NCBI GenBank assembly: GCA_008632985.1
Contig: QPGO01000029.1
Span: 508,874-572,873 of the forward strand
Length of the DNA: 64,000 nt
Direction: 5' to 3'
Source of the DNA: Psammoneis japonica
Lineage: Eukaryota
Shown here: positions 1 through 46,019 of the stretch, in pieces
Numbering within the stretch: the stretch's first letter is position 1
Layout: each line of letters opens with the position of its first letter
The notes under the pieces: model-generated
Told to the model about the DNA's origin: nothing
Seen by the model: only the letters and a program-made list of their open reading frames with translations
The model's database searches: none
Position numbers and translations under genes: made by a program

Positions 1-3000
1 CAGAGCTCATTGCACTGCAGTGTGGCCATGATTGACATGCCATGGATGGCTCTGACAACTTGGATGTAAAGGACTCTCTTGCCTTTCTCCAGGAACACAT
101 GATGTCCATGCAGGTTGGGATCGATGCTCACTGGCATGTCCACTGACACTCCTGTGATCTTCATCACAATCCAGTCTTTGCCTTCTCCAGCATCTCAGTC
201 TGCACAAATGCACCTGGAACATTGGTGCTCATTGCTCATTTTGTCATGTCCTTCATGGTTGTCAACAATTGCCATCATCAACAACATCCACTTGGGGGAT
301 GCAGCAGACTGGCTGACTTGTCTTTGTCTGGCCATTCTTGGGTTGGTTTGCCCCATCACAGACCATCTGCTTTTTTGTGTGACCGTCTCATTTCTTGGCG
401 CAAGGCCACCATGGCCTTGATCCTTTCAGTTGGAGCCATGTTCTTGACCAATGCTGGTGCAAAACACATGTTGTCATGCAGCTGTTTGACTTCTTTCTCT
501 GAGGCATCATGCCCCTTCTGGCCAAATGCTTTGAGGCACACTCATGAAGCAAATGTTGCTGGGCAAAGCATGAGCCCTCTCCACTTCAGAGTCTGTCATC
601 AACCTCACACATGAAGTGTGTGAGCACCATTGCTGTTCATGCATCACACTCTACATTGAACTTGGGTTGGGACTCAGGTTGGCATGGGAACAAAGGTGCA
701 CTTGCAGGGATTCAATGACTTGTCCATGTGCAGGTTCACAGCACAGTGACTGCTTTTGGGAGAATCAACAAAACATGGTTACAGGCAGGTGCTGTTGACA
801 CCAGGTGCTTCCAGGGCCATTGTGTTTGTCTTGTCATTCTCAATGGAAATGACAAGTTTCCCAAACTTGAGCTAAATGTGTTTGTTGCAGTCCAGGTTTC
901 TTTGTTGCATGACAGTGTGTGAACTGCAGGTGTCAGAAATCCCTTCTTTTGCTGGTGTGCATGTTTGACATGATGACAGTGTTCTTCATTGTGGCTTGCT
1001 TGCACATCAGTTTGGGTGTCGTCATGTGTGGCATGTGGTGTGTGGTGGCTCAGGTTTGCTCCTTGATGGTCTGAATGCTTCACCAAACTTTGGGAACATG
1101 ATCCTTGGCATTCACAGAGATGAGCTCTAGATTTGCACAATTTGCAGCTTCTGCTGGCATGTCCTTGAACTTGGGATCACACTCAATGAAGTCAATCTTA
1201 AAGCAATGGGGCCATGTTGCACTGTTGGAGCATCACATTGTCCAAGGCTTTGCAAACATGTTCATGCTTCTTGGACTTAAGTGTCACACTCAATCAGGGC
1301 TTGATTGTCTTGCCAACCGTGTGCAGCATCAGTGCACTGCTGCATGCTTCCACAATGTCGGTCATGCCTTCTCTCTGCTTTTTGCATGTCTCAGGTGGCT
1401 GGCATGTCAATGATGTTGTTCCTCTCATGAGAATGCTGCACATGCTTGGTCTTGCCTTTGAGTGCATGCATTGGTGGATCCCACATCGCCACCATTCTGT
1501 CCACATCCTCAGGCAGGATGGGTGGGTTCTTCAACTGATTGGATCACAAAAGCAATTTGAAATCCCTTGCACTGGGTGTTCCAGCCTTGCTGCATGGTCT
1601 CAATGCTTCCTCAGCATTCACCACCTCTTGTTCAGCGCAGCCTTTCATGCTCTGTTTCACAGTTGAAGCAACAGCTCCCAATGCACTCCTGTGCTTTTCG
1701 TTGGTCTTTTTCACAACCTTCTTGTCCTTTGACAGCATGCTCACATGCAACTCATCTTCTTGGAGTTCTTTTGCATGGTTGAAGAATTGCTGGCTTGGTG
1801 CAAATGTGTGCAGTCCAATGCTGTTGACTTTGAACACTCTGACCTGTTTGCCAGCAGTCTTCTCATCCAGTGGACGGAACTCATCTGCCACTTGGTTGTT
1901 GCACACAATGCAGCACTTGCTCTTCACATCCTTGAGACTCAGGATGTTGGCTTTTGTGTTCTGCAATCTGAGCTCCTTGTCACCCCACACTGGCACAGTG
2001 CAGTCATTGTCCAAAGTGTCCACTCCTGCACTGGTGGAAAGATCAATCTTGATCCTTGCCCATTGCACGTTGCTTGTGCACTGGTCTCCAGCTTGCTGTT
2101 GTGCCAAAGGTGGAGCTTTTGTCAAGGATGATCTCATCTAACTCAGTGCTGACATCAGCCAGGCTCAAACTCATCTCCGGTCCTTCTTTGACCTGTTCAT
2201 CCAGCTGGAGCCCTTGCCATGCAATGTTTCTTCTGCCAGAGCTTGCAGATCAACTTGATCTGTGGGCGTCAATGCTGGCATCATTGCTGCTCACTGATGA
2301 AGAGTCTTCATTTCTCTGTGCATGACTCTGTCCCCTGGCATCTGGTTTCCTGCTGGTGTTCTTGTGCCAGTCCTTCTGCAGGATGTCATCCTCACATTGC
2401 AATCTGGGGCTGACTTGTGGTTTGCCTCACCACAACAATGGCACATTGCTTTGTTGCTCTGCACATGACTCTGGTCTTGTGGGTTCTTGGGTTTGTTGTT
2501 GCCCTTGTCCTCTTTCTTGTCATAAAAACCAAACCTGGTTTAAAGTGCTGTTGTGCCTTTGCCTCGCAGCACCAATGCCGGCCAACCCACACTTCTGGCA
2601 CACCCCACTGGGGGTGTGGCAGAAGCTTGTGCAATTGGCCAGACACAGCACCTCCAGAAGAAGGTGCCCAACAGAAAAACCAGCAACAGCACACTTCTTT
2701 CAGACTTTCTTCTTTCAATCGGGGTCTTGCCATGGACAGCCAATTCTGTGTGCAGGTGGTGCAGTGTGCTTGATTCTCCTAAAATGCATCTGACAAAACT
2801 CTGCAGTCTTCAGCCAAATGCTTTTGATGTTTGTTGCATGTCACAGTCAATTTGGTCTCCCATCCATCTCTGAGAAGACTTTCTTGAACCTGCATCACGA
2901 CCATGTGCCAGCCAATTTTCTCCTCCCAGAGTTCTTTCTTGTCATTCAGACTTTCATCATTCTTCTTCTTGTTCCACCTCTTGCACAGATTGTTGTCTTT

Positions 3001-4449
3001 CAGCTGGTTCAGCAACACATCCATTGCCTTCTCAAGGGTCTTTGGGTGCAAATCTCCCTCCCCAGGCTCTGCAGTCTCTCACGAGGCTCTTCTTGAGACT
3101 CTTGTGGCAGCAGTCATCACTGTTCTCCATGAACAGGCATGCAGCCCATGGCTCAAATGCAATGTCCTTCAGTGTCTGTTGATCCAACAGTTTGGCCTTG
3201 GTGCAGCACTTGCACACTCCTTGACATTCTTGATGAGTCCACTCAACATCTTCCTGCCAAGGCCTTCACTTGCAGTGTCCCATTGATTCTTTAATCTTGA
3301 CAGGCAGTCATTCAGTGACTCCTCATTCTCTGATTGTTTCACTTCCAGCATGTGCTTCAGGGACTTGACAAGTGCATGAAATGGATGTTGACCTCTCATG
3401 GAGTTGAACACAAGTGACTGGATCAGCTCCAACATCTTGATTGGGTTGTCTCTGATCCTTGAGCAACTGGGGTTGGCCTGCACTCTTTGCTTTGTCAGCT
3501 TGGAGCAGCAATCATCTGGGATTGTCACAAATGTGGCACTCTTGTTTTCTTCAAGCTTCTTGCCTTTCTTGTTGCAGTCATGCAACTTGATTTTGTGCTC
3601 ATGTTGTTCCAGCTGCCTTTCTTCTCTGGCCCTCTCATTCACCATTTTCTGGCAATCTGTGTCTGATGCTGGTTGCACTGCTGCAGATGGCATCTGAAGT
3701 GTTGGACTCACACCAGCAAAAGTCATGCATGCCATGTCTTCCAGGGACCTTGCCAGATGCACATCTTGATCATGCTCCTTCTGCACATGGTTGACAATCT
3801 TTTCCTTGGCATCTTTGAACATCGCATTGTGGGAGTTGCTGTTCATCGATGATGGACAAAACTTCATTTCCAGCTTGAAGCTTTTCCTGGGGTCAGTCTT
3901 CTTGTCCCCATCACAGCCAGACTTCTGGCCTCTGCCACCCTTGCCTTGGCCATGATGCATGACCTTGGCCTTTGGTGCTCCATTCTTCTTCCTCCTCTGC
4001 CACTCACAAGGCAGCTGACTTGGATGATGAAATGGAGGTTGGCACCGCATGCACCAAACACTGTGCTTGTGACTCTTTGGAGTGAATGTTGAACCAACAA
4101 GTCAATGTCACCAAAAGGGAATCCTCTGGGGTTTCCTGTGCCACTCGTCACACTTGTCCTGGCTGCTGTGGCAGCTGTCGTGGTGTGCCTCTCTGGAGGC
4201 TCTCCAACAAACTTCAATCTCATGATGTGAGGGGCACCTGCTGACACCACAATGCAATTTGTGTGAACCAGATGATTCCATCCAAGGAGTGAGACAAAAG
4301 AAGGTTGGTTAGATTAGTGACGAGTGCACGCTCCATTCCAAAGTGTCGCCTGGTCCGCCGTGGCCGCTGGCAGGATCAGAAGCATCTTCTCTTTAACAGA
4401 TCCACTTCCGGGTCTCTCACATTTCCTGCTCATTCTAGATGCTCCAACA
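1..4449 (-). mobile_element. Decayed Ty1/copia (CoDi-like) LTR retrotransposon, family A, copy 1; runs off the window's left edge
   Basis: Minus-strand fragments in copia order: putative 5' LTR ~4449-4253 (TG...CA), PBS-like TGGTGTCAGC at 4249-4240, gag-like ORF 3169-4050, protease/integrase remnants ~550-2300, RT N-terminus (LKAFGQKGHDASEKEVKQLHD, 356-541). Many stops and frameshifts. Clear nucleotide similarity to the copy starting at 19627. Confidence 0.8.
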
Positions 4450-4632
4450 TGTGGACCTCTGCCACCAACTGGAGTTTAGAGCTGGAGTCAGCTGCACTGT
4501 TGGAGCAGCGGCATTGCTGTGGCTCTCCCATCGTTCTTTGGGAGGAGTGCCGCAGCTGCACGAAGTGCGCAAGAGACAACGGTCAACGCACAGACTCACG
4601 ATGAGCGAATGCTCGCTCGCTCGCTTTTCACG

Positions 4633-4816
4633 TGAATAAATGCTGATGTGCTGTCACGTGTGTAGGCAGTTTAAGCGCTGTTGGCGATTGGTCCACTGTC
4701 GCTTATTTAGTGGCCCCAGCAGCGTAACATCTCACAATTCTAGAACCTGTTGATGCTGTTCAACACTCTGTCTTGTCTTACACCCAATTCTTAGCTATCA
4801 TGGCAGCATTTATTCA
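4633..4816 (+). repeat. 5' LTR of the family B element
   Basis: Starts TGAATAAATGCTG and ends CAGCATTTATTCA (13-bp inverted termini). Aligns ungapped with 11144-11327. Confidence 0.95.
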
Positions 4817-5362
4817 CTTTGTCAGAGCCAATGCGCTGTGATGTTCATCGCCTGGAACGGGCATCGCGAACGGTGCGACGGTGTCGTTGCGATCGATCGA
4901 TTTTTGCGGCAAGCGCCATGTTGGTCCCATGGTTGCTCGCGCAATCGCTGAGTCCTTTACACACATCAACATTCATGGATATGAACGACATGCTCTTGGA
5001 GACCAGAGCTGTGATCCGTTGGACATGACGCTAGAGTGTGGAATGTTTGATCACGTGGATGGAACATGTTGGCTAAGACACATGAACATTCGTGACAAAG
5101 CCAACATGATGATTTATGTGTGGAGGTCTGTCATTTGATCACACACATTTCATTAATCAAAATACGTTGTCAAATTGTTTGGACACTGCACATGTGGACA
5201 CATGTCTGTTGGATGTCATTGCTTGGGAGCAACACCGCCTGCTCGCGGGTTCGCCAAGTAGAAACCGCCAAATCGGCACGAGAGCCACACATTTTTCTCA
5301 CTTTCCTCCACTCACACAAGTGGATGCTCACGCGTCGAAACGCGAACAACTGCTGATGCACC

Positions 5363-6782
5363 ATGGCCGCTGCCGCAGCCTTTGCCACCTGTCTTGCGCG
5401 TTGTGGACACAATGCACAGACGCGTGCCCACATGGCCCGCCAAGGCTTCACTGCGATCGAGGACCTGGAACAGGTTCCTTTGACGGAAATCACCGACATG
5501 ACCAAGGGCATTGTGAAGAGCGTGGATGCCGCCGCCAACCCCCAAGTCCGCTTTCCCCACCTGGCAAATCGCAAGCTCAAGGCACTGCATGCATGGATTG
5601 ACTGCCGCAGAGCTTGGAATCAAGAGCCGACCACTGCTCTCTTCACTGGCAACGTTGTTGGGACATGGACGGCACGTCTGACGGAACTGGAGCAATTCAA
5701 GTCCGCCGACTCGGATGACGAATCGGCCGCCAAAACCGCCGTGGAACTCAAGAACCTGTGTGACTGGCCTGCCTTCCAGGAGCCATTGGAGACCGAACTG
5801 CGTCACCACCGCAGCACCGTTGCCGGAGTGCCCCTTGTCCACCTGGCCAGGGAACATGAAGAAGTCACCGCCGAGATGTTGGCTGCTGCCCACACCACCA
5901 TTGACGAGGACCTTGTTGCTGCCACCTGTCTTGCAGGAGCTCAGTGTGCGCAGGATGGGCAACACCTGCATGACCTCTTGAAGAAGTTGGTGATGGGGGG
6001 CCCGGATGGGCTTTTGTCAAACCTTCCAATCGCAATCGCGATGGTGCACTGCCTTCTTCGCACTTGAGAGGCAGGCGGAAGGATCGGCTGCCACCACCAC
6101 CCAAAAGAACCGTGCACATGCACAGATTGCTGCTGCAAAGTGCACCGGATGGGGTCGATTTACATTTGACCAGTGCACCCAGCGTCATCAAAAGGCTCAC
6201 AAGGACTTGTCTGAGCTTGACGAACCGGTGGCCGAGACCAAGAAGGTCTCTGACTTTCTGAAGGGCATCTCCAACCCCAGGTTGGAAACTGGAAGAGCGC
6301 AGTGGATGGAGACCCAACGAAGCGAGCGGACTTCTAGGCATGCCAGCAGCACATGAAAACTCTGGTCGAGAATGCCAAGAACCGCAATGCCGACGCTTGC
6401 GGGGTTGCATCCATCCAACGCCACAACAATCGGCGCACTGACCCTGGTGGGAAGCACCAACCTAAAAAGGATGAGCCCAGAATCCGGGCAGGCCATTGTC
6501 CTGTTGAAGAGTGGAGTGCTCTTGACGGTCCTGAATGAGAGCAAGTCCAAAAGCTCCGCGATGCCAAGAAGGCCGAGAAGAAATGCAAAGCTGCTGCTGC
6601 GTCCTCGGAGGCTGAGTCGGTCGATGCCGAAACTCGCGCCGCAAAGAAAGTGGCTGTTGCCGAGCCTGCTTCTCAACCCACTGACACACCAGAAAGACTC
6701 TGAAGAGCCTGACAAACCTGCTGCCAATGCAGGCACCCAGTTCGGACGCAGTGCGCACAAGAAACCTCAGAAGGAGGAATGA
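5363..6782 (+). pseudogene. Frameshifted gag-like gene of the family B copia
   Basis: Overlapping ORF pieces 5363-6067, 6006-6356 and 6353-6538/6372-6782 between the LTR and the protease. Motifs resemble diatom copia gag (DWPAFQEPLETEL, KKVSDFLKGISNPRL). Confidence 0.7.
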
Positions 6783-9700
6783 ATGGTTGCGCCAGCACTG
6801 GGAGGCATGGAACCGATTGTTGCCACACCTGCTGGCACTGTTCATTTGTCCAGGCGATTCTTGAAGGATGTGCACGTCTCTCCATCATCTGCTGGAAATT
6901 CAGATGACGAAGCCACCACTGATTTGGACTCGCACGCTGACACGTGTGCCGTTGGGTCCAATTTTGTGATGTGCTCTGACATCGACAGAACTGTCATGGT
7001 TCACCCCCACTCCGAAGAGCACGCACCAATGGAAAACATTCCCATTTGCACGGCTGCCACCATGTGGGTTGATCCAACTGATGGACAACCATGCCTGCCA
7101 CTGGTCCACGAGGCTGTGTTTTTTGGGGACAAGATGACCAACACCCTCCTGTGCCCCAACCAACTGCAAGCGAATGGGCTGATTGTCCACGACACCCCTC
7201 GCCAGTTTGATCCGACTGGCACACACTCCATTTCTTTCCCTGACTCGAAGATCAGGATCCCATTGTGAATGCGAGGTGTTGCTTCAGTCTTTGATTCACA
7301 CAAGCTGACAAAGGAGGATCTGGAGAACCTCCCCCGGCTGGAACTCACATCACCCCTGAGATGGGAGCCTTCTGCTGATGCCCTGGCACAAAAGGAGGAA
7401 GCGCATGCATGTGCCAGTGCGCACCAAGGATCAGCAAAGTCGGACGGACGGTCGGCGATGATGAATGCGACCAGGTGTGTCGCTTCCATTCATTCACACC
7501 AAACGTCCTATCACGACGAGAGTGTCATTGTGGATGCCAATGACGACGAATCACTGCATCACCGCCTGGTTGCTCAGGTGAATGTCTCCCACAACGACAC
7601 TGAGGGAGACGGGCTCCACGACCGGCATGACTTAGATGTCCACCCGGATTGTGCTGAGCGGAGACGGGTGTGTGCACTTTCGACCTCGAGTCGTGCATCG
7701 ACTGTCACGCCCGAGATGCTCTCTAAAAGGTGGAACATTGGCCTGACGGCTGCCAAGAACACCCTTGGAGTGACAACCCAGGCAGGGGTCCGCAATGTCT
7801 GCACACCATCTGAACAGAAAGTCTGGAAGAAAGCCCCTTGGCTTAAGTTCCCTGCTGTCAAGGGACGACTCTACTCCGATCAGATGTTTTCGAAGGTTAA
7901 ATTGATGCATGGCGAGACAGGAGGAAGCGTGTTTACCAACGGAAGAGGGCATGATGGGTTCCATCCTTGGAAGAGGAAACAGGACCACCCAGACGCCGTC
8001 ATGTCATTCACACATGACGTTGGCGCGCCGCAGGTCCTTGTGTCGGATGGCGCACCGGAAATGGCAGAAGGCCAGACCAAGGAGATCTGCAAGGAACACA
8101 GGATGCACCAGGAGGTGTCCACTCCACACAGCCCATGGCAGAACCTGGCCGAGGCATCCATTTGTGAGTTGAAGAAAAGAGTCCGTGTGACTCTGCGCCG
8201 GACTGGCGCTCACAGGCGACTTTGGTCCTGCAGCGCCAAATGGACATGTGATGTCCGATGCATGATTGCGACTGGCACATCGGACATGGGAGGACGAGTC
8301 CCAGAAGAGGAGGTGACAGGTTCAACACCCGACATCTCTTCCCTCTCTCTCTTTGATTGGCATCAACCTGTGCATTGCTGCATGCCTGTGGCGGAGTTCC
8401 CACACGAAAAGAAGTGCATTGGCCATTGGCTCGGAGCAGCTGACAATTGCACTGACGACATGGCATTCATTGTTTTGCCCGAATCAGGCAAACCCATCAT
8501 CCGGAAGGATGCGTGGGCCATGCCGGAGGATGACCTTAAAACTCCGGCGATCCTGACAGATCTTGCATCGGTCGAACAAGCTTTGATCGAACGGCTCAGC
8601 ATCCCGGAAAAGGATGCCAGTGCTGACTTCCCTGAACTCCCTGATGACTTCATGGACGAATGGGACGATGCCGTTGAACCCGTGGAACCCGACGCTTCCA
8701 AACTGGAAGCTGATGAGTGCACCCCGGAAGGGCCAGATGAACATCTCACGGCTCAAGTCATGTTGCCACGAGGAGGCGAGCTGACTCATGCTAGGGTCAT
8801 TGCACGCAAGCGAGACAGCGACGGGGTTCCCATCGGTGCTAGGAACGACAACCCTGTCCTAGACTCGAGGATTTACGACGTGGAATTCCCTGATGGATCC
8901 ACTGATTCCTGTGCTGCCAACATAATTGCAGAGAACCTGTTCACTCAGATCGACTCTGAAGGGAATGCCCACCAGATCATGAAGGAAACAGTCGATCACC
9001 GACGTGATGCCCGTGCTGTGACGGCCGATGATGGGTGCACAACGACTGAGACTGGCAGGCGTGCTCCTGGGAGGACGACAGTGGGCTGGGACCTGCAAGT
9101 CAAATGGAAGGATGGGACCACATCCTGGGTTCCTCTCAAGGATTTGAAGGAGTCCAACCCAGTCGAGGTTGCTGAGTGCGCTGCAGCGAACAAAACAGCC
9201 AGTGAACCAGCCTTCAACTGGTGGGTCCGAGACGTCTTGCATCGCAGGTCGAGGATCCTGAAGAAAGTCAAGTCGCGTTGCTGGAAACGTGCGCACAAGT
9301 TCAGAATTGAACTCCTGAAATCTGTTGAGGAAGCCATGGAGACAGACAACAGAATGGGGACCGACTTCTGGTTCAAAGCCATCAAGAAGGAAATGCATGA
9401 CGTCATGCCTGCGTTCGAATTCCGCGATGACGATGCTGCGCCGGTCGGGTGCAAACACATTGACTGTCACATGATCTTTGACATCAAGAGCACTCTCCAA
9501 CGTAAAGCGAGGTTCATGGCCGGAGGCCATCAAACCAATCCACCTGAGGAATCGACACATTCCAGCGTGGTGTCGCGTGACAGCATTAGGATGGCATTCA
9601 CTGTGGCAGCTCTGAATGACCTGGAGGTCCTGAGCGCTGACGTTCAGAATGCCTGCTTGAACGCACACACTGAGGAAAAATGTCACACCACTGCTGGCCT

Positions 9701-10991
9701 GGAATTTGGGAAGCAGAACGAAGGAAGGCCGGTGATCATTGTCCGTGCCTTGCATGGTCTCAAATCTTCAGGTGCAAGATTTAGGGAGCATGTGGCAGCC
9801 ACTCTGCGGGACGCTGAATTCGAGTCTTGCAATGCTGACCCGGACATCTGGATGCGGGCTGCGGTTGAGCCGGATGGCTTCAAGCACTGGGAACATGTGC
9901 TTGTCTACGTGGATGACTTGTTGTGCGTCTCCCATGAACCTCAGAAGGTCATGGATTGCATGAGCTCCAGGTGCACGCTCAAGGACGGAAGCATCTGCAA
10001 GCCGGAAGAGCACTCAGGCGCCCAGATTGGAAAGCACCAGCTGTCTGACTCGGATGGTGAGACACACTGGGCCATGTCCTCTGACCTTCGTGTCAAAAGG
10101 GCATTGGCTGACGTTGAATTGGAGCTTAAGAAAACTGACAGGCGTCTTCCGACAAAGGCGTTGACACCCTTGAGCTCGGGACACAGGCCTGAACTGGATG
10201 GTTCACCCGAGTTGAACACCAAAACAGCCAACTGCCATCAAGGCCTTGTCGGTGTGCTGTGGTGGGTGGTTGAACTGGGGCGAGTGGACATTTTTGTCGC
10301 TGTCTCGCTCATGTCCTCCCACTTGGCGGCACCACGAGTTGGACACCTGGACGAGGTGCTCCATGTCTTTGCATGCTTGAAGGCTCATTCTAAGTCTGCG
10401 CCAGTGTTCGATGACACTGAGCCCGTCTTTGACAAGAGTCGCTTCACCAAGTGTGATTGGGAAGAATGTCACCCTGGCGCGGCTGAACCAATGCCGCCAA
10501 ATGTGCCAGAGGCACGCGGGAATGGCATGACTGCCACTTGCTTTGTCGATGCTGATCACGCCGGATGCCGTGTGACGTGCAGGTCCCACACTGGGATCCT
10601 GATCTTCATCCAACGAGCGCCCATCTTGCATTGCTCTAAGCGGCAGAATGCCACAGAGTCCTCTGCTTTTGGGTCGGAGTTCGTGGCTATGAAGACTGCA
10701 GTGGAGCAAATTGAAGCCTTGCGTTGCAAGCTTCGGATGCTCGGAATCCCCATGGATGGGGCCACCAACGTTTTCTGCAACAATGAAGCTGTCTTCAAGA
10801 ACTCAACTAAACCAGAGTCCACTTTGAAGAAGAAGCACAATGCAATTGCCTGTCACAGGACTCGTGAGGCACAAGCCGCTGGAATGGTGCGCATTGCTTG
10901 GGAAGATGGGCACACGAATCCAGCGGACACACCAACTGAGTTGTTGCCTGGACCGAAGCTCCGGGAAATCATAAGTCACATCCTGTGGTGA
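6783..10991 (+). pseudogene. Copia pol polyprotein (aspartic protease, integrase, RT, RNase H) with one in-frame stop at 7266-7268
   Basis: Protease LDSHADTC; integrase SDGAPE...PHSPWQNLAEASI; RT DVQNACL, ALHGLKSSGA, VYVDDLL; RNase H FVDADHAG, SSAFGSEFVAM. Conserved Tyr residues are mostly replaced by Cys/His. Confidence 0.93.
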
Positions 10992-11143
10992 GTCCCAAAA
11001 GGGGACAAACCGAACGGGTTTGCCGCGCAGGTGCGGCTTTTTCCCACCCCCAAAATGCAATTGCTGCCCTGGAACAGGGCAGCATCAGGTTGCATTTGTC
11101 AGTCAATCTGACCCAAGCAGAGCTGGCGTCAGTTCGAGGGGAC

Positions 11144-11327
11144 TGAATGAATGCTGATGTGCTGTCATGGATGCAGGCAGTTTAAGCGCTGTTGGCGATT
11201 GGTCCACTGTCGCTTGTTTGGTGGCCCCAGTGGCGTGACATCTCACAATTCTAGAACCTGTTGATGCTGTTCAACACTCTGTCTTGTCTCACACCCAATT
11301 CTCAGCTGTCATGGCAGCATTCATTCA
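11144..11327 (+). repeat. 3' LTR of the family B element
   Basis: TGAATGAATGCTG...CAGCATTCATTCA; 14 mismatches to the 5' LTR by manual alignment. Confidence 0.95.
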
Positions 11328-13421
11328 CACGCACAACATTCTGGATTTGAGATTCCAACATGTTGCAATGTGATGGATTTCCAGATTGAGGATGAGGATG
11401 CCGCAACAGCATTTTTTCTGAGAAGCGTTTCTCCATTGCGTTGCCTCGAGACGATGAGGCCATCTCGACCATCTCAATGTTTGCTCATCGTGACACTCAA
11501 TGCACCACAAGGTTCAGGATCACATTTTGGCCACGTCCAACCTTTTTGACACCAGCACACAGTCCTGCGAATCATCATCAGTCATACGTCTCCGAGGTCC
11601 AGCAGACTTCACCAGATGCGGCATGCGGTGGCGCAGGCCAGAGTCTGCTGAAGACTTCTCCCTCCTTTCGCGCCTCATCCATCTGTCTCGAATCAAGGCA
11701 GAATGAAGTCGATGACGCCAATGACAGCGCAAAACTGCTGGGGAACACAATCGGCTCAACACTTTCTTTGCCTTCATGGCACAGCATAAGCTGCTGCGGC
11801 TGGACGACGCGACACAGGACCAGTTGATGGTCTGATTGTCTGATTGTCAAGGAAAGGCATTGTCAATGTCGCGCCCACGAAATGCTGTAGAATCGAAGCT
11901 TGCCAGACTGTGCTACAGCATGAAAGACATCCAAGTGAAAGATGACAGGTGTGGTGTTGGTGTTTGCGCAAGTGACGACAAAGGCATTCTCGGTCGAGTT
12001 CATGCAAGTGGAGGCCACGACAACGCACTGCATCAGGCGATGACATGAAAATTTCCACCGCAGCTAGTCCGACATGCATGTGCACCTCGTTGTCATCTGG
12101 CCAGACAACATGAGACGAAGAAGAGGGACTTCTCCAGAATGAGAAACTTCACGTTTCGCAAGACGACACTACAACCGACGACACATTTGACACCATTCAT
12201 TTGGGAGTGCCATCTTCATTCCCATGCTTTTGTGGGCTGTTAAGTGCAGCATTTGCATCTTCGACTTTCTGTGCTCCGACTCCCTGAGCCGGAAGCTCAT
12301 TTGCACACCGCCTGCTCTACATTGCTCTGTGAATTGATGAAAACAACCGACACTGCACTTTTGGGTAATGTGAGTGCCACGGCCTTGCCCGCCACTCTAT
12401 TTGATTCATGGAAATGTGCTCGCTCGTTTTGATTCAAGGTCGTGTTTTGGGCATTCTCGTTGAACCAGCCATCGGTGCTGGCAAGCAATTGTCTTCAGGT
12501 TTCTTGCGCGGTCTTGGGTGGCAGAGATCTGGTTGTCTTCATTCCACGGCATTTTTGTTGGGCAGGACGAGGAGCTTGCGATTGGATGTGGTCACCTGTC
12601 CCAATGCTTGCCGTCGCAGCAATTCATGTCCCGATGTGATTTCTTCCATGATGGCTCTCGGGCTCAACGAAACCTTGGGTCTTTGTCTTTGCACTGGGTG
12701 AGGCATCCGTGAAAACGGCTTGAAGGCTTGTCCCATTGTCACAACTGTCATGGAGTGCGTCGAAGACCTGTGCTTCTGGCTCGTCTTTTGTCAACTTCAG
12801 AAGCTGCGTGCTCCAACACGGTGATCATGGTCTCTTGCAGATGTCTCAAAAGAGCGGATCTGGAGGTTTTCTCAGCTCTCAATGGCAGCTGCTCTTAATG
12901 TGGCGTCGGGCTTCTGGTGTGTCGCTGTCATTGACACTCTCAGTGCAAACATGGGGTGAAGTTGACGCCGGCATCTTCAGGGCATCCTACCGCACAGTGT
13001 GTTTGTGCTGGTCAATGGCACCTCCTTGGCATCTGCGGCAGGGATCGAGTTCAGGCAATCATGTCGGCGAGAAGCAGGCTGGACAGGTTGGAATCGTCAT
13101 GGCATTTGCATTGTTGTTGGTCATGCCCGCCATCGCTGTCACCAGTGTTGGAATTCTCAGAGAGGCACTCATTCAAGACAAAGAGTTTCTCATGCCACTG
13201 GAAGAAGCAAAAAGCCATTGGCCGCTGCCCACTTTTTCGTGTGTTTCCGCCGCAGCCATTGAGCGCATGCTGCATTCCACGGGACGGATGGGGGCATCTT
13301 TTGGATGGGAATCATTGCAAGCTTACGAGCTGGCAATGCTGATGCATTGTTCATGACAACCGCGGACTGTTGCAATTGCTCTCTCCCGCTGTGAGGGACG
13401 TTTTTCCACTGCTTGGGGTTT

Positions 13422-14405
13422 TCAGATGTACACACGCAGCCGATTGCAGTTCATGAACCGAGATGAAAACCATGATGGTCCCTGCGCAAGACGTGCCTTC
13501 TTGTGTCCCAACTTCTGCTCGAGCTCTTCCATGCGCTTGCGGACACGGCGGTGCTCTTCTTGGTTGGCGTCATCTCCATCGTCGTTGCCAGCCTCTTCAG
13601 AAGCAACTGAGCATGCTTGAGCCACTGCTGGCACCGGCTGCGGTGCCTCCTTTTTGTCGAGCAGCAAGCATCGTGTGATTCTGGCATGCAGTTCCGGGAG
13701 CAGACACTTTCCCGTTCCGATCTTGAGGCAGTCGTCGGGAAAGTCTATGTTCTCACCAAGGCCCAGGTTGTCAAGTTTCCAAAGTGACTTCACACAACCA
13801 ATCTCATCGAGGCGGCAGATGCAGGCTTTGTTTGCCATCTTCGTGTCCTGCTGGACTTGATTGTTGATGAGCATGGTGGCACAGGGTTTGGAATCGGAGT
13901 GGGTTCGGAGGTGGTTGACCGTCTTCAGACCATTGACACTCTTCGCATGGGCTTGAAAGTGATCAATGTGACGATTTGCAGCTTGAACTCGACGTTTGTT
14001 GTTTTCATCCTTCTTGTTCTCCTTCTGCTTGATCGTTGCTCGTAGGTTCAGAATCTCCTCCTCCAACTGGACATCCTCCAACTGAATGTCATCAACCAGC
14101 TCCCTCTCCTGTCGCATGCCCTCGACACTGTCTCCCCTGCTTTGGAGACAGCCATCAAATGTGTCGCACAGCTGTGCGTTGTTGCAGTGCACGCAAGTCT
14201 CCAACAGGTCCTCGTCAAACTCATCCGCAGGCACATGGACAAACCTGGAATCGCTAAGTTCCTGAACCGTCAGGCACTCGGCGACGCTCCTCACGTGGCG
14301 CCTCAACATGTTGGGCGTGAAAGCCGCCGCGTGCGCCTCTCCATTGTCAACAAGCATTCCAGCAGCGGCCGCACTGAACATGGTGAATGGCAGCAGAGAA
14401 TGCAA
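13422..14405 (-). pseudogene. Hypothetical coiled-coil/acidic protein, TpA-eroded (probable pseudogene or TE-associated ORF)
   Basis: 327-aa ORF with protein-like composition (RQERELVDDIQLEDVQLEEEILNLRATIKQKE; RVRKRMEELEQKL) but almost no Tyr. No recognisable family. Confidence 0.4.
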
Positions 14406-17400
14406 TGCAACAAATGACGGATGTCAACATTGTGAGGGTGGCTGGGGAGACTCATTTTTTTGCGTGTGGGAAAAGCACTGAATTCGCACGTAGCGCTCAA
14501 GTTGGACTAACGGCTGCGCAGAAAAATGCAGTGCACAAATGCAGTGCTGACTCCAGCTGCAATGGGCATCGACAACGGCTGTGTAGAAAAAGCACTGAAT
14601 TTGTACGCAGCATTCATCATGCACACAAAAGGTGACAACGACAACTTCTCTGCGTAGAAAAATGCACAAATGTTCCAGCACTGATTCTCCACCGGTGACG
14701 GCAGATTACACTGGCGAAACGTGCCAGGACAGACGTTGCATTTTTGTGTCATGCCAGCTACGGTGTGCGTGCACACAGCTCATGCACCAACCATAAACAA
14801 GATGTTTCAGAAGCACGCAACAACACGTTCAATTGGCGATTGAAATGAGCAAATTTGAGTGCGTTTGAGCACATTTGAGCACATCTGAACACATCTGAAC
14901 ACATCTGAACAACAGCACCAAGGGCTGCCATGAAGGTTGTCGGCTGGTTCTGGCAGCCAGCCAAGCAGTGTGAAAAACGAGTTGTTTTGGCACCAGCAGA
15001 TTGGCTTGATTGAAACAGGCTGTTTTGCGCCACTTGGCAAGGGTCAAATGGGTCAAACAATGGCTCTTTTCCATTCTCTCCATGTTGCAAAATGCAAGAG
15101 GAACATGTGCAGCTCTCCAAAAAACACTCTTTGTTCAACCCTCGAGGAGCATGCGGTGCCGGAAGTTTGTTGCAGGGCATTTGCAGTTTTGCCATCTCTG
15201 GTTGAAGCTTTCATGTCTTGCCAACAATCTTTCCTCTTGAGCTCTGCAGCTCTCACCAGGAGTCAAGTGCATTTTGAGCATGCCTGGCACACTCTGGCTT
15301 GGCTGTGTGGCTGCAGCCACAGTCGTCTCTCCAGTGGCTTTCACACACACCCAGAGGAAAATGCCCCCTCAGCTCTTGGCAAAAGAGCACAAGGCTGCAC
15401 TGCCTCCCTGCTGGCTGCACAGGGGTTCACACCCAAAGAAGCCATGGTCAATGCATCTGCAGCCCCATTTTACAGTTTGCACCAGGTTTCCACCAAGCCT
15501 GCAGCTCAAATTAGATGGCAAGAAAACAAGGGGGGCTGTTCATTGGCAGGACAGTGTGTGCCATCAATCAACAGACCAAAGATTTCACAAGTCTCTCCAG
15601 CCTCTTGAACCAAGCTAATCTGGTGCAAATGCAAAAAAAAAAAGCATCTGTCAGCCTTTTTGAGATCACAACAACCACATGACATGCTCTTGCTTTGCAC
15701 GCACCATGTGCCAAAGCAACAGCACAATTTTCAAAGTGAAATGGCCAGCTGACCACTTCTTGATGGCTTTGCCATGCTTGTCAAAAAAAGCCTTTGAGCT
15801 GTTTCTCCATCAGGTGCAAGAAATGGCAACAATGTGCAAGTGCTGTGGGGCTTGGTGCCACCTTTGATGCTGGTGCAAGCAGACTCCTCATCTGCTGTCA
15901 TCTGAAGATCATGCCACCAAATCAGCCCACTGCAAATGATTTGGGGAAGACTCTGCAAAGAGCATCTTGAAGCATGTGATGCATTTGCTCTGTTTCTGCA
16001 TCATTGTCATCTCTTGCAACTGCCTGGTGAGCTCAAGCCCAAGGCCCATGAGTTGGGCTGCACTGAACTCACTGGTGGTCATGGCATGGCAGGCTGCCAC
16101 ATCCCCTGTGTGCCAGATGCCAGAATGTGCACTGCATGCTGAGATGCCAAGGGATGGGTGATGGGCCTTTTGAAAAATTTGAAAATCAGCAAAGAGGTTG
16201 AAGATTGCAATTGATGTGAAAAAGTGCATGCTGGAAAAGAGCCACAGCAATTGGTGCATCATGCACACATCTTCAAGACAGGGCAAACATTTTCTCCTGG
16301 CAAAGCCCAGCACATGCCATTGCTGCAAGTTGTGTTGCCACATTCATCATGTTTCTTCACACCCATGTGCCTTGATTTTGCCACCAACTCATTGTGGGCA
16401 AACATGTCCATCCATGTTGAAACATGTTCACCCATGTTGATTGCACACTGCAGCCATTGCAAGTTGCTGAAAGTTGTTGGGGAAAAGCAGCAGAACCTGG
16501 CAAAATGGTGCCAAAATGAGGAGTTGTGCTGTTCCCATGGGCACAGTTGCACAGATCTTTAAAGACCTTCAAGAGAGCCTGAGTTGTCTTTTGTCATCAC
16601 TTGGCAATGGCACCCAAGGACAGCACCTGCATTCTCCAATGAAGAAGACAAGGCAGTTCCAGCAACAGCCTGACAAGTGACCACTCATCTGAGAGCAAGC
16701 CCTTTGCAAGCAAGAGCCGCCAAAGCATCATTGACAACGCGAAGCCCCCCAGCCAAGCAAAGGCTGAAAATTCAGGAAAGGAGGCTGATCTTTGCCAAGA
16801 GACCTTTTTGCAAAAGCTCCTCCTCCTTCTCCTCACTGCTTCCAACATGGCAGAAGACCTTTTCCCATGTTCTCATGGTCGCATTGGCCAACCAGCCCTT
16901 GCTGGTGCCGGCATTGCAGCTGCTGGTGGCACATGACCAGCCCATGCTTGTGCTGCAGCTGCTGATGGTGGTGATTGCAATCTGCCAGCAAGGACCAGTG
17001 GAAACTTGTTTGTGTCTGTCAGGCCCACCAAAGCTCTGGCAGACTTGGGCACATGCTGCATCATCATCCACAAGCTGACCATCCTAAGAAGAGTGGGGAT
17101 CTCTTTGCTCAAACTGTCTCCAATGTTGACATTGGCCTGCATGCCCCCAACTCAAACTGACCATCCCTGGTGTGACTGATGCACACAACTTCAACAAGAT
17201 CAACCTTTGGGCAATTTTGAGTTGTGGTGCATGGGTCTGTTGACTCCACACAGTTGGTTGCACAAGCATCCAGTGTGGCTCATGAGCTGGAGGAGGACCC
17301 AGTCCACAGATGGCAAATCACAAAGACTCTCTGCATCCTTCCCAATGGAGCACATTGTGCCAAAGTGACCACATCACAAGGTGCCTCACCCCCAGACACC

Positions 17401-19626
17401 ATTGTCAACAAAACCCTGTTTTGCCTGAGCACTGCTGCTCCAGGCTTGTCATCACATGAGGAGCAGCAGTTTGTTCCTCTTCCCTGGTGAGAGTTTGCAC
17501 ACAAGAAGAAAGCCCAGGCTTGCTCAGGATGTCTGTGACTGTGACAATGTTGATGATGTCTGCTTGGCAATGCAAGGGATGGATTTGAACCCTTGGCACA
17601 CATGCACCACTTGGTGTTTGCAGTCTGGCTGTCACAGCATGTGCACAAAATCTTGTCAACCTTGTGGGCATGCAAGCAAATGCCAATGGCAAAAATGACA
17701 GAGTGGTGGTTTTGTTGAAGCAAATGATGTTGAGGAGGAGGTGGACAACAATGATGTCAAGGTGGAGGAGGAGACAATGGCTGACAACTTGTCACAAAAT
17801 CTCCTGGAGGAGCATCTTGATGATCTCCAGACAACACTCAGGCTGACCTCAGCAGCAGTGCAGTGGATGACTTGATTGATGCCAATGAAAGCATTGTCAA
17901 TGATGATGGTGCCCCAAGCAATGAGGAGCCAATCATCTTTGTTGCCAGCAGGGCTTGCTGCAAAAAGCAACCCCACACAAGTTGGGTCCAACCAGTGCTG
18001 CAAGCAGAGCAGGCATCTTTGCAAGGACCATGGACTTGCACCTGGCAAGCTGGTGCTCAAGCAGCACAAAAACATGGACAGTGCACAGTGTTCTTTTGAG
18101 CATTGTGGTGACAAGCAACACTGTTTTGCTTTCATTTGCCCATGGCCATTTGGAGGTGCAAGGTGGGCTGGCCAGTGATTCTTTTTCTTGAAGCCCTGCC
18201 CCAATGCATTTTTCTCTTTCCTGTGCCAAGCTTGGTGAGTGGGTGTGTTCTCAAATCATTTCAAGGCAAAAAAGCAGATGTGTTCAGCATGCTGCAGGAT
18301 GGCAGATGCCAGAAATCACATGGAAAAAGTGTGAAACACCAGCCAGCAGAAATTGTCCTCAAGGTTCTTTGCCCTTTTGTCTGTGCAATGCAAGTCCCAA
18401 CAACCAACTAACCACACTCTTCCATGCAGTGCTTGGCAAGGTCAGTTGTTGTGTGGCAGTTGTCAATGCAGAGGATGTGGTCTTTCTTGTGAGAGAGGCC
18501 ACATTGATGGGTCAGAGATGAGCCTCCAGCATCTTGGGTGTGGTGTTGGTTTCTTCTGCATTGTCTTTTCTGCTGTGGATGTTGAAGAAATGCACACAAG
18601 CAGACTCAGCACAGCACAGAGCAAACACCTTCACCACATGCTTGATGGGCTTTGCCAGCATGCACTGGACAAAGGTGATGGCTCTCTCTCTCCTTGCAAA
18701 GAATCACACTGTCATCTGTCATCATCAGCTTCTTGCCACAGCTCCATCCTTTCTGAAGTTTGGAAGACAGAAGATTGAGTGTTGGAATGACTTTGAAGAA
18801 TGGGTCATGTCCTGGCAAACCTTTTGGGTGTGCTCTTGAACTCTGAGCAAAGTGAACATTTTCTGAAACCAAGTGCATCATGACTCATCACATTGCAAAT
18901 CCATGGGCACCCCCCAGCCACATGGCTCATGCTCCCAACAATGCAAGTGCAACCAACCAGAGCCCCTTGATCTGCAAAGCCTTGCTGTGGCAAGCAAGGC
19001 CAGCACACAACATCCTCTCATGAACTTGAATTTTTTCAGTTCCTGTTTGGCATCACACCTGTGCTGGGGAGTGGGATTCTCTTTGTAGAGCCTCTGAAAG
19101 TGTGGCAGGATTTCCCTTTGTTGCATGGCACCTCTTCTGTGGCAGACCTCTGATGCTGCACTCATCTCTGGTGCATGTGCAAGTCAAGTGTCCCAGGCAC
19201 CCCCAGTCTTCAGCATCTTGGTCTGCTTTCCAAGCTTCATGAGTGGCTTGTGCTGGCTGTTTCTCTGCTTGCAGAAGGTGTGCTTGTTTCTTTTGTCCAG
19301 ATTTCTTGAACTGAGACTGTCGAGAGTGACTTGTCCCATCACTTCTTGAACCTGTCACAGAACATGATGACAAGAAATGGCACCCCACAATCTGCCAACA
19401 AGTTGCGAGCATTTCCAGCAGCTGACCACTTGCAAACTTGCAGACAATGTCAAGCTGCAAATTGAGCAGCTGTGATTTGTTGGGGTGCAGCTCTCACACA
19501 ACCTTGGTGTCACTTCATGATGACACACCAGTGTGGATCCACAAAAAAGTTGCAATGCTTTCGCATTTCAGCCCACCACAGTGTGAGTGCTTTTGTGAGT
19601 GGAGCACCCTGCACATCCACTCCATG

Positions 19627-22600
19627 TGTTAGAGCATCTGGAGTGAGTGGGAAACAGAAACTCAGAAAGGAAATGTTGAAGATTTGGTGACACCTGACAA
19701 GCAAGTCTGCTTGTTGCCAATCTTGCTGACCTCATTTTGTCTCACTCTTTGGAGTGAGTCATCTGGTTTGCACAAATCTCATTGTGGCATCAGCAGGCAC
19801 CTGCTGCATTGTGAGATTGAAGTTTGTTGAGGACTTTCAGGCAAACTGCAGCTGCCACAGCAACCAGGACAAGTGTGACAAGCAGCACAGGAAACCTCAG
19901 AGGACCCCCTTTTGGTGACATTGATTTGTTGGTTCAACATTCACTCCAAATGGTCACAAGCACTGCATTTGGTGCATGGAGACAGTGACCTCCATTCAAT
20001 CATTTGACACACAGGAACCTGCCTTGTGAGCAGCAGAGAAGGAGGTGAATCTGGCAGAGGAGGCCAAGGCATCAGCCAAGGCAGAGGTGACAAGTCTTTC
20101 TGTGACAAGAACAAGAAGACCAACCTGAAGAAGAGCTTCAAACCAGAGTTTCATCTTTCATCAATGAACAGCAACTCATGCAATTGAATGTTTGAAGATG
20201 CCAATGAAAAGATCATCAATCACATGTGCAGAAGGAGCATGGTCAAGGTGCACATTTTGTGGGGTCTCTGGAAGGTGTGGCACACAGAAATTTCTCTGGC
20301 AAGAGTCCTGCATTGGCACTGCCAATGACAATGGTGCCAGAACCAGGTCAAGCAGATTGCCAAAGTGTGGCAAACAAGAGAGCATGAGAAGAAAGACAAC
20401 TCAAGCATGAGTGCAAGATCAAGCTGCACAACCACAGTGAGAAAGTGAAGAAGCTTGAAGAAAACAAAACCACTGCATTTGCAGTGATCAGTGATCCTGG
20501 ATGATTGCTGCACCAAGCAAATGAAGCAGAGAGTGCAAGCCAACCATGGTCACCAGAGGATCAGAGATGACCCCCCCAATCAAGCTGCTGAAGCTGATCA
20601 TCCAGTCACCAACACTCAACTCCATGAGAGGTTGACATCCATTCCATGCACTTGCCAAGTCCCTGAAGCACATGCTGCAAGTGAAACAATTGGAGGACGA
20701 GTCACTGAATGACCACCTGTCAAGATTTAAGAATCAATGAGATGCCACAAGCAAAGAAGGTCTTGGCAGCAAGATGCCAGATGGACTCATCAAAAACACC
20801 GAGGAGCACAAGGACTGCACCACCCCAGTGGAACAGACCACATTGAAAGACCCTGCATTCAAGACATGGATGACACACCTGTTTTCAGAGAACAGCAATG
20901 ACTGCTTCTGCAAAAGAGCCTCAAGAAGAGCCTTGCCAGAGACTGCAGCCTGGGGAGGGACTCACATCAGAAGACCCTGGAGAAGACAATGGATGCACTG
21001 CTGAGCCACCCAAAGGACAACAATCCATGCAAGAGATGGAGCAAGAAGAGTGGTGAATGTCCAAGTCTCAGGAACTAAGACAGGACTGACAACAGGTCCC
21101 AGAACCCACAAGATCAAAGTCATGCCCAGAGTGGTGATCAAGGTGGCAACACAGTGTGCTGTTGTTGTGGTGTGAACCAAACCACAAGTTCCCAGACTGC
21201 AAGTGTGAGGATGAATCCCACAGAAGAGCTGGTGCAAGGACAGTGGAAAGAAACTGGGTGCCAGGGGACATGGTCACACACAAAGAGACAAAGACCAGCA
21301 TTCATCAGCGAGCATTGACAATGCTGGCATTGACACCTGCAGGTTTCTTGGTGTTCCTCACCAAGAAATGAGGTGTTTGCACAAAAGGGCAAATTGTCTG
21401 CAATGGCAAACTGACCCCAGAATGGTTGGACAAAGATGAATCAGCGAGCCCTGCTGAACCCCTTGAAGGAATGTTGACAACAGCAATCATTGACACCCAT
21501 GAAGGACACAGTGAAATGAGCACCAATGCTCCAAACGCATTTGTGCAGATGACAACACTGGAGCCTGGAGAAGGCAAAGACCAGGTTGTGATGAAGATTG
21601 CAGGAGCACCAGTGGACATGCCAGCAAGCATTGATCCCAACCTGTGTGGACCTTGTGTGGTTCCAGAGAAAGGCAAGAGAGTCCCTCATGCCCAAGTCAT
21701 CAGAGCCATCTGCAGTGTGCCAATCTTGGCTCTGCTGTGGTGCAATCAATTTTTGGAAAGACTTGGAGAAAACAGGATTCAAGTTTGGCCCACATGTGAT
21801 TCTTTGTGCATTGCCAATCATGCAGTCAATGGCAAGCAGTGCAGCCCATGATTTAATTTCATGTGGATGACCCCATTGTTGAGCCACAAGAACCCAAAAG
21901 CAAATGACAAGTTTCTGAGCTGGTCAAACAAGATGAGCTGCAGCCATGGTGAAATTGTTGCTGCATGAGGGAAGAGACATGGCTGTTCTGGCATGACCCT
22001 GGATTTCAGCCAGAAGGGCAAAATGAGAGTTGACATGACAGACTGTGCTTGCAAGATGATTGACCAATTTCCAGAAAAGTCAAACAGTGCAGACATTGCT
22101 GTGACACTGGCTGGAGAAAAGACTTTTGACACCTGTGGGACAAGCTCATCAGATGCAAAGGCTCAGACCTTCCACAAATGTGGGTGGCCAAGAGACTGTT
22201 CCTGTCCAAGAGAGGCCAAAAGGATGTGCACCTCGCTGTCACTGCATCATGCATGGAAGTGAGAGCTCAAACACAAAGGACCTTGGAGTTGTCAAGTGGC
22301 ATGTGGACACATCATTTTTGCAGCACATCCCAATTTCAAGAGCCACGCCAAAGGAGGAGTTGTGACAATGGGTGGTGGAGCAGTGCAGGCCACTTCAAAG
22401 TGCAAGAAGCTCCACACTCCAAGAAGCACAGAAGCTGAACTTGTTTGAGTTGACAATGCCATGGCTGTGACACTGTGGACCAAGCTGTTCTTGGAACACC
22501 AAGGGCATCCAATCAAACATCCTGCACCAGGACAACAACAGTTCCGTCCCACTGGCAACTGATGGGTGCAATTGTGCCGGCAAGCAATCGCAAGCACTCA

Positions 22601-40745: not shown

Positions 40746-41207
40746 CCTGGTGTTTTCTTTTCAGTTTCATTGCATCAGCCTGGCGGCGAAGAATGATGTT
40801 AACTCCGTTTCTGGTTTTGCGGTGTTGCTTGGTGTCGGCCGGAGTTTGGCGGCTGCTGTCTGGACTGTCGGAGATACAGTGTTGACTCATCTTTCGACAC
40901 ATTCAAAGCGCGCGACTGCTGCGTCAACCGTCCAAGAATGCGCAAGGCTTGAATCTCCTCAAATTTCGCTTGTCGCTACTCTCTGCTTCAGCTGCCTCTC
41001 TAATAGCGGCGTCGCGGCAGCGCTAAGCTATGGGCATTATAGCTCTTGTGAGGCTAAAGAAGTGCGTTGCTACTCTAGCTAGCTTATACTTCTGTACGTA
41101 TCTTCGAGCTGAAAGACGCCATGCAGTACAAGCATTGTAAAAGTCTATTCATCGTTCATGTCTAGAGAAGTACTAGTCCAATCAACCCCCATCAAGTTCA
41201 TGCCCTT

Positions 41208-43423
<2,216 letters not shown>

Positions 43424-44155
43424 TCTGCAATGATATAAATGACAGGTCAAGTACCTTTGCAGTTGTTTGAGCCTGAGTTCAGTGTGGTTTGTGCCTGCTT
43501 CTTGTGCCGTCTTTGTGAAAGCGTTGTTTTCTCGCGTTGCCGGCTTTGGCGAGCCGACTTGCTCGAGTACATTGCTCGCGTGATTCAAGTTCCAGTACAA
43601 GATCCAGTTAAAATGTACATACGTAGTATGGCAGTAGTGATTTCACGAAGAGTTGCCATGAGTATCATATTTTGTGTACAGAATGAAATTTCATTTTTCT
43701 GGTAATTTTTTGGAAGAAACAGAAAACGCAATGGCGGGTGGGTCCACGAAAGGCAAGCACACTGCTACAGTAGAGAGAGCACATACTTTAAGAGTGGCAA
43801 AACCGCGATCGAAGGTGGTTACTATGAGGCCTGTAGCGTCTTTAGTAATGATTCGTAAACATCAAAGAGTTTTTCGTGTCTCCATCATCGACAATGATGC
43901 TTAATGCCCATGATGTAACACTTTGGGCCCACGCTTATCTTTGAAGCCTTTGTTGATATGGTGTCGTCCCCTTTGATAAAAAAGAGAGATCGATTACACT
44001 AGTCGCTGTGTTATTTCGAGCTTTTCGTCGAATAAATAGATGTTCGGCTATGAGCTGCGAACACATGTTGTGAGGATGGGTGTATGCGAACTCCACCTGA
44101 TGTGTCGACTCGCGGTCGCACCACCAACAGAAAAAATTTACAAGAGAACTTGATC

Positions 44156-45649: not shown

Positions 45650-46019
45650 CATTGGGACGACTCGTCTATTATCTATCTTCGCAGTCTAGCATCCGTGTGT
45701 CAAGAAGAGTTGTACGCAAGTTTCTTACGAGACCGGTGACACGAATGCAGTTCATGTTTATATATTACAGTACTTTTAAACTATGGATGATTGCATGAAA
45801 CGACTTGCTGCCATCTTTGTGACCTCAGCACTCGACGGATTGATCTTTCCTTGTACCAAGTAGTGTACCACCCGCTAGAGAATGATATCGTCGAGAGCAC
45901 CAAAACTCAGAGAGTCCATGCCTCTCTAGTAGAAGAGACCGTCAGCTCAATGGGCCATTGCATTGACTGTTATGGTCAATCAATGTCTACAATTCGGACG
46001 TCGAGTCACGATAAAAGGA

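Follow-up and report, generated by a model that had tools for sequence, protein, structure and literature searches.

The DNA analysed here, a window of 64,000 nucleotides from the diatom Psammoneis japonica (contig QPGO01000029.1, positions 508,874 to 572,873), carries a Ty1/copia long terminal repeat (LTR) retrotransposon, flanked by CACG on each side, in which TpA dinucleotides (TA) have largely been converted to TG or CA (Table 1). The TAs that persist follow a context rule. Those left in the pol open reading frame (ORF) comprise 14 YTAR (TTAA 4, CTAA 4, TTAG 3, CTAG 3), six YTAY, three RTAR and no RTAY (Y, pyrimidine; R, purine), and the hand count of the initial annotation (23 TA, with 14 YTAR, 9 YTAY or RTAR and 0 RTAY) proved exact. 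The YTAR/RTAY rule is a genome-wide property of the process by which TA is lost.

Table 1 Features of the window, with positions counted from its first nucleotide
Feature	Position	Strand	Basis
Ty1/copia LTR retrotransposon, diatom-type family, TA-converted	4633..11327	+	LTR pair 92% alike, RVT_2, copia reverse transcriptase clusters
5′ LTR, mostly spared, 11 TA	4633..4817	+	
Broken gag-like region and protease-like frame, frames interrupted	5357..7268	+	ORF list, sequence
pol ORF, 1240 codons, 23 TA left	7269..10991	+	RVT_2 match
3′ LTR, 2 TA left (TTAA 11183, CTAG 11252)	11144..11328	+	
TA-depleted domain, TA observed/expected mostly 0.0-0.17	1..25500	.	
TA-depleted DNA, no long second copy found	11328..14600	.	
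Gene-rich unconverted baseline, TA observed/expected 0.42-0.89 (about 0.6), RTAY 300, YTAR 166	41001..64000	.	

Results

Surviving TA sites in the window element

The nearest Atlas clusters of the element's reverse transcriptase are mostly copia of Bacillariophyta. Four Tyr codons remain in pol, one of them in YVDD at 9906; the gag-like and protease-like region upstream has no Pfam match and contains, near 6926, a DSHADT that we take to be a protease-like motif. Nine TAs of the 5′ LTR read TG or CA in the 3′ LTR, and the two common to both, TTAA (4672/11183) and CTAG (4741/11252), are YTAR, as the initial annotation had stated. The LTR pair kept two of four YTAR and none of seven other sites, numbers that are too small for significance on their own.

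The 14:9:0 split in pol lies beyond chance, whether it is set against a uniform null (p = 2e-4), the TA contexts of unconverted DNA (0 of 200,000 draws) or the TA sites of this same ORF across copies of the family (p = 1e-4). Relative to L015, a little-converted copy, the window copy keeps 12 of 36 YTAR, 5 of 39 YTAY, 3 of 26 RTAR and 0 of 26 RTAY (chi-square p = 0.003), while at family-defined sites the pol ORF keeps 14/50, 6/55, 3/38 and 0/62, respectively (p = 4e-6). Twenty of the 22 window TAs in the aligned part are also TA in L015; they are therefore survivors and not newly made TA.

These comparisons leave barely any credence for the idea that the YTAR excess reflects new TA made by C>T change in dipyrimidines (YCA to YTA), coding constraint or an assembly artefact. 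Dipyrimidine change would indeed give a 2:1:0 class pattern, and YTAR is impossible at codon position 1. However, regain was rejected on the TAs shared with L015, and codon constraint because the rule is present at codon positions 2 and 3 and also outside the ORF. As to the assembly, contigs of a DNA run (X1, possibly the source data) match it across 11299-19500 except for six substitutions, none of which restores a TA.

The context rule across the family and the genome

From 41 genome matches to the copia family, 30 loci were taken, the window copy included, and 5′ extensions were obtained for 20 of them; four far less converted copies (L012, L015, L016 and L026) served as references. The 403 TA sites were defined across all 30 copies, a definition that misses sites lost identically in every copy. 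Over 24 converted copies (182 of 186 sites), survival was 0.29 for YTAR, 0.087 for YTAY, 0.087 for RTAR and 0.007 for RTAY.

Genome-wide counts were taken from 61 stretches totalling 654 kb, 40 of them chosen for their proximity to known repeats or loci and 20 according to contig number, one of the latter being just 266 bases long. TA-depleted tiles hold 685 YTAR, 533 mixed and 63 RTAY sites, against 1211, 3713 and 2029 in normal tiles. The depleted-to-normal ratio of 4-mers, the sole analysis in which copies of the copia family were masked, runs from 0.50 for TTAA down to 0.005 for ATAT, and held-out genome stretches agree with the rule. Genome searches did not turn up another repeat family on which the site-level analysis could be repeated independently. 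The initial annotation had read the context rule as a fingerprint of the loss process, and this reading holds: normalised for ancestral contexts, by family copies as well as by genome 4-mers, survival is still context-dependent. The fingerprint amounts to a 2- to 4-fold modulation over the basic specificity for TA.

Timing, strand symmetry and independence of conversion

TA losses go nearly exclusively to TG or CA, in equal numbers (3548 and 3557), and both outcomes are seen at 387 of the 403 sites. Neighbouring losses share a strand no more than expected, with no strand-coordinated runs. For 14 of 16 copy pairs, agreement in the direction of change is close to what site bias would give, and the idea that their converted states were inherited from a master copy is rejected. 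The exceptions are the near-duplicates L020 and L024 (concordance 0.97) and the pair L012 and L016, which show an excess (0.74 against 0.60); L024 was dropped from the family counts of spectrum, LTR/CG coupling, spacing and phase. Comparison of the two LTRs within each of four copies gave differences at 49 of 56 TA sites and at 9 of 618 remaining positions (10 of 12 and 3 of 159 in the window pair), a saturated excess of at least about 60-fold. The LTR differences, strand symmetry and independence together imply that conversion took place after insertion, on chromosomal DNA and site by site; it did not act on RNA or the first cDNA strand, nor in one processive burst.

Four of the 14 two-LTR copies (the window copy at 4633-5250, L002, L003 and L013) have a spared 5′ LTR and leader, with 11-14 TA against 2-3 in the 3′ LTR, a pattern which suggests that promoter chromatin blocks the mutator there.

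Outside TA, A>G changes amount to 0.7-3.6% and each transversion to 0.2-0.3%, and none of them follows a copy's TA loss. The least-changed context is GAA (0.74%), and TC, which is GA on the opposite strand, stands at 0.7-1.4%. At CAY and GAY, A>G reaches 1.3-2.3%, with GAC, GAT and CAT near background at 1.3-1.4%.

Relation to CG decay

CG loss and TA loss are weakly correlated across 29 copies (rho 0.43, p = 0.02), and TA survival declines slightly with distance from CG (rho -0.16, p = 0.002). The four reference copies among the 30 are about a third to half TA-converted, yet their CG loss is as in the others, so that the two processes are to some extent uncoupled. No comparable flank rule was seen for CG survival.

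These results bear on one of the two mechanisms put forward in the initial annotation, long-patch repair by DNA polymerase (pol) eta at WA motifs (W, A or T), here triggered near methylated or deaminated CG. Pol eta is reported to give A to C or G at WA (PMC4686820), two eta-like genes are present, and AA is changed slightly more than GA. Even so, AA>AG reaches 1.2-3.6% and A>C 0.17%, against loss of 85-98% of TA sites in converted copies; transversions stay near 0.2%, same-strand tracts are lacking, and a TA next to a CG that the same copy has lost is no likelier to be lost itself, nor are the strands of the two losses coordinated. We consider this mechanism highly improbable.

Flank motif and the attacked base pair

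A competing-risk model was fitted to the 403 sites (8530 site-copy observations, 200 site bootstraps, whose intervals lie apart). By the base 3′ of A, the relative rate is 1.5 for C, 1.6 for T, 0.7 for G and 0.6 for A; by the base 5′ of T it is 1.2 for A or G, 0.96 for C and 0.73 for T. One base further out, rates run from 1.36 (A) to 0.69 (T) on the 5′ side and from 1.27 (C) to 0.69 (A) on the 3′ side, all of these values being compressed by saturation and site heterogeneity. The fitted target is the almost palindromic RRTA*YY (the asterisk follows the changed base), and the coldest sites are TTTAAA-like. Of 191 asymmetric sites, 146 show more frequent change of the A that precedes a pyrimidine, 42 show the opposite and three are ties (p = 1e-14). 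ADAR-type editing was set aside as a poor fit: ADAR prefers UAG and, acting on RNA, would leave a bias towards one strand, whereas TA*G is changed at a rate of 0.7 against 1.5-1.6 for TA*Y, and TG and CA outcomes are balanced (3548 versus 3557).

Since a TA*Y site changed A>G is, on the other strand, an RT*A site changed T>C, the attacked base cannot be named from sequence. All counts would equally fit an attack on thymine, in which, within silent repeats, oxidation turns the T in RT*A into 5-hydroxymethyluracil (5hmU) or 5-formyluracil (5fU), which pairs with G and gives rise to C. We regard this as unlikely. 5hmU is weakly miscoding, and TC, at 0.7-1.4%, is a least-changed context here. In dinoflagellates, 5hmU is reported to mark repeats, with TA and TC as the preferred contexts of T replacement (PMC11572971), which would favour thymine oxidation, but a preprint by the same authors gives TG-rich 5hmU motifs. 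No Tet_JBP match was obtained in the genome, although the control was silent too, which makes that search uninformative.

Helical phase of the survivors

Relative to AA/TT, surviving TAs are out of phase, with a period of about 10.1 bp, and surviving CGs in phase, a feature that was not among the claims of the initial annotation. Within the copia family, the survival left unexplained by the flank model shows an autocorrelation, noticed after the fact, with a period of about 10.25 bp (p = 0.01 for periods of 9.5-11 bp, p = 0.04 when all periods are considered). In genome tiles, the frequency of AA/TT as a function of distance from a surviving TA has maxima near 25, 35 and 45 bp and minima near 20, 30 and 40 bp. 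The phase test was fixed before the held-out stretches were run, with a block bootstrap over 16 stretches, and gave an amplitude of -1.45% at 10.0 bp (z -4.3) against +0.08% for a flank-matched TG/CA control. Over all data (341 depleted tiles), TA stands at -1.16% (z -7.0) and CG, in the opposite phase, at +0.48% (z +4.1); the frequency of survivors in the out-of-phase quintile is 1.8 times that in the in-phase quintile (35 of 47 stretches). Spacing among the surviving TAs themselves has no consistent 10-bp peak, with peaks at 11 bp in depleted tiles and at 10.25 and 12.75 bp in intermediate ones.

In depleted tiles, GC follows the AA/TT phase (z +3.3) and AT opposes it (z -3.8), the reverse of the usual nucleosome pattern; the reversal is likely a by-product of TA conversion.

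The phase signal points to an effect of nucleosomes. TT is reported to be over-represented at inward rotational settings (PMC6287878), from which we infer that TAs with an inward minor groove may be lost faster. Such faster loss could reflect an enzyme approaching from the exposed major groove, or poorer repair of lesions at these positions.

Conversion elsewhere in the window

Within the depleted domain, CG is almost absent too in 1-4000 and 15001-25000, and partly reduced in 5001-15000. A genome search with 12900-14300, downstream of the element, returned itself and two short matches of less than 80 bp, and contig depth there is flat at 66. Since this DNA is depleted with no long second copy found, TA conversion is not restricted to current repeats.

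Several other segments of the window differ in their TA content. Inverted copies of another repeat family at 1-4330 and 19700-21750, 72-90% alike, have lost TA and CG alike. At 30080-40900 lie three tandem copies of one gene that are TA-depleted but contain open frames (965 and 871 codons), and Pfam gave no match for them. A short duplicated segment has TG or CA in its first copy (29288-29413) where the second (34012-34137) has TA, and aligning 28900-30300 to 33620-35100 gave short homology only. The telomerase reverse transcriptase gene at 52491-55844 is unconverted.

Candidate genes in the genome

Genes were searched for in six frames with a filter; for the deaminases only exons were scanned, and divergent families would be missed. 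Profiles PF00383, PF14437 and PF02137 gave nine, five and four matches. Loci of the first two include dCMP deaminase (two loci) and RibD, a TadA-like protein with an N-terminal extension (L033), a single ADAT2 (L036) whose residue at the E. coli 108 position is the usual Asn, and a small deaminase adjoining a purine-permease-like gene (L038). PF02137 marks two genes, one (contig C40) that we take from its motif to be ADAT1-like, and a separate ADAR-like gene (L088, C79:344558-345390) with a DCHAE motif and ADAR2 as best hits. A further locus, L035 (313-1785, minus strand, contig C79), encodes a zinc deaminase domain joined to a DIOX_N/2OG-Fe(II) oxygenase; the fusion probably serves nucleobase salvage, and it unites the two chemistries at issue, deaminase and 2OG-Fe(II) oxygenase.

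The Y-family polymerases are REV1, a kappa-like gene (by domains), two eta-like genes (L042 and L044) and the iota-like L041, whose best hits are human pol iota (E 2e-26) and kappa (2e-14), an assignment of orthology from best hits of one exon with no tree. Pol iota prefers G opposite T, and the literature confirms its very high misincorporation rate. Single-base gap filling by such an enzyme could insert G opposite the T of TpA after removal of the A, and single-base events match the lack of runs. This route, however, requires an additional TA-specific first step and leaves the near-absolute specificity for TA unaccounted for, and we hold it to be decidedly unlikely.

C5 DNA methylases gave 27 matches (L095-L109), one of which adjoins a chromodomain frame and several of which are, on motifs and with no tree, presumably DNMT4-like. 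Diatom DNMT4 has already been reported. The methylase copies on C297, C301 and C28 are themselves TA-converted and almost without Tyr. The genome profile search found no N6/N4 methylase (PF01555), and no MPG/AAG match was obtained (the control matched in 4 of 14).

Discussion

A host activity converts the A:T pair of TpA to G:C in the chromosomal DNA of putatively silent domains after insertion, and we propose, with about even confidence, that its chemistry is adenine deamination. The activity takes one TpA at a time, on either strand, until almost no TA is left. Flanking bases set its rate, which peaks at RRTA*YY and is lowest where the site resembles TTTAAA. The rate also depends on position relative to the AA/TT phasing of about 10.1 bp, a statistical signal that may reflect nucleosome rotation. 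Adenine would be deaminated to hypoxanthine and read as G, through an enzyme of the TadA/ADAT fold or an unrecognised deaminase, which might reach TA steps whose minor groove faces the histones; alternatively, lesions at such steps might escape repair. TA conversion is distinct from the decay of CG, whose phase is opposite and which is nearly without a flank rule. By analogy, the proposal draws on TAY being the top motif reported for adenine base editors (ABEs; PMC10879117), and putative ADAT2-, TadA-, ADAT1- and ADAR-like genes are present in the genome, with no MPG/AAG match. The natural DNA adenine deaminase suggested in the initial annotation is in part supported, in that the core TA*Y equals the best motif of TadA editors (PMC10879117), while the expanded or chromatin-fused TadA, ADAT or ADAR deaminase that it envisaged was not found among the profile matches, for which only exons were scanned.

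Several points weigh against adenine deamination, beginning with the same-base-pair ambiguity described above. TadA-type enzymes need unpaired DNA, which fits the nucleosome phase poorly unless it is repair that makes the phase. A weak 3′-pyrimidine bias also occurs in non-TA A>G changes, which do not follow TA loss, so that part of the flank rule may be generic. Held-out intermediate tiles did not reproduce the phase (z -0.9); the copia family shows it marginally (rho -0.11, p = 0.048), and normal tiles show it weakly, with the same sign (z -2.9, amplitude -0.22%). AA/TT itself is without self-periodicity in the tiles tested. Among the genes, the TadA-like L033 retains Asp at the E. coli 108 position (D108), one EndoV gene is present, and the deaminases found are single, ordinary-looking and unfused, with no expansion or chromatin domain in the scanned exons. 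The one natural DNA-editing ADAT2 reported, from amphioxus, acts at GAA, the least-changed context here.

The weak phase in normal tiles, together with the phase effect as such and the missing MPG/AAG match (subject to the control above), would also accord with a basal TA lesion that forms everywhere and is left unrepaired in silent chromatin, the flank and phase rules then being those of repair. But LTR pairs differ at TA sites some 60 times as often as elsewhere, and transitions of other kinds show no increase. We know of no spontaneous damage with such specificity for TA, and judge a basal lesion improbable. Psoralen-like or UV photoproducts at TA were set aside too, since they yield transversions and are not restricted to repeats.

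TpA hypermutation has precedent in one preprint, on viral inserts in Bigelowiella natans (Mettrop et al., bioRxiv 10.64898/2026.01.13.699255), which proposes ADAT2 as a candidate for TpA>TpG. As reported there, TpA goes nearly exclusively to TpG or CpA, on both strands, in silent foreign DNA that need not be repeated. Genes are spared in both cases, TA observed/expected here being below 0.15 in blocks of putatively silent DNA against about 0.6 in gene-rich DNA. The Bigelowiella rate is given as about 1000 times background per generation, whereas our LTR pairs yield the saturated minimum of about 60-fold and no per-generation figure. The settings also differ: a rhizarian with viral inserts followed in mutation-accumulation lines, as against a diatom in which transposons and gene copies are nearly completely converted. 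The main text of the preprint gives no flank rule or nucleosome phase, though its supplementary mutation list may show flank context. In the literature examined, which left most subscription papers outside, we found no description of TA loss in diatoms. To this precedent our analysis adds the flank rule, the tests of independence and strand, and the 10-bp phase.

Other known systems share individual features with the process described here. TadA-derived ABEs also make A>G changes, with activity reported as highest at TAY, the optimum found here, and lowest at MAR (M, A or C; PMC10879117). They are, however, engineered, Cas-guided and active on displaced single strands, whereas here chromosomal DNA is converted with far stricter TA specificity. 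GAC, GAT and CAT, which ABEs favour (PMC10879117), stay near background at 1.3-1.4%, and appreciable editing of CAY and GAY is not seen (1.3-2.3%, not following TA loss). Fungal repeat-induced point mutation (RIP), linked to RID/DNMT4 (PMC9998398), is likewise a dinucleotide-specific transition hypermutation directed at repeats and transposons, and DNMT4-like genes occur in diatoms. RIP, as described, is set off when repeats pair in the sexual cycle; it changes C to T at CpA/TpG and so makes TA, the opposite direction to the diatom process, which erases it. Unlike RIP, conversion here leaves no strand-coordinated runs and seemingly reaches near-unique DNA (a lost or unassembled second copy being possible). 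The 5hmU of dinoflagellate TET/JBP is a T-centred mark on transposons and repeats, in TA and TC (PMC11572971), but it is reported as an epigenetic mark and not a mutator, and TC is unchanged here.

Whichever enzyme is responsible, the signature (RRTA*YY, strand-symmetric, non-processive, 10-bp phased and opposite to CG decay) is a read-out against which candidates can be screened. It disfavours pol eta, ADAR-like and reverse-transcription-stage editing, and it does not name the enzyme. It also lets the diatom and Bigelowiella processes be compared as one system or two. Our broader suggestion, a doubtful one, is that diatoms and chlorarachniophytes share a genome-defence mutator, a natural DNA adenine deaminase or TA-specific modifier that edits nucleosome-wrapped double-stranded DNA at RRTA*YY, on the face opposite to CG decay and with no R-loop. 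If adenine deamination on chromatin DNA is borne out, the enzyme would be of a kind so far only engineered, and a repeat-silencing mutator with a polarity opposite to that of RIP.

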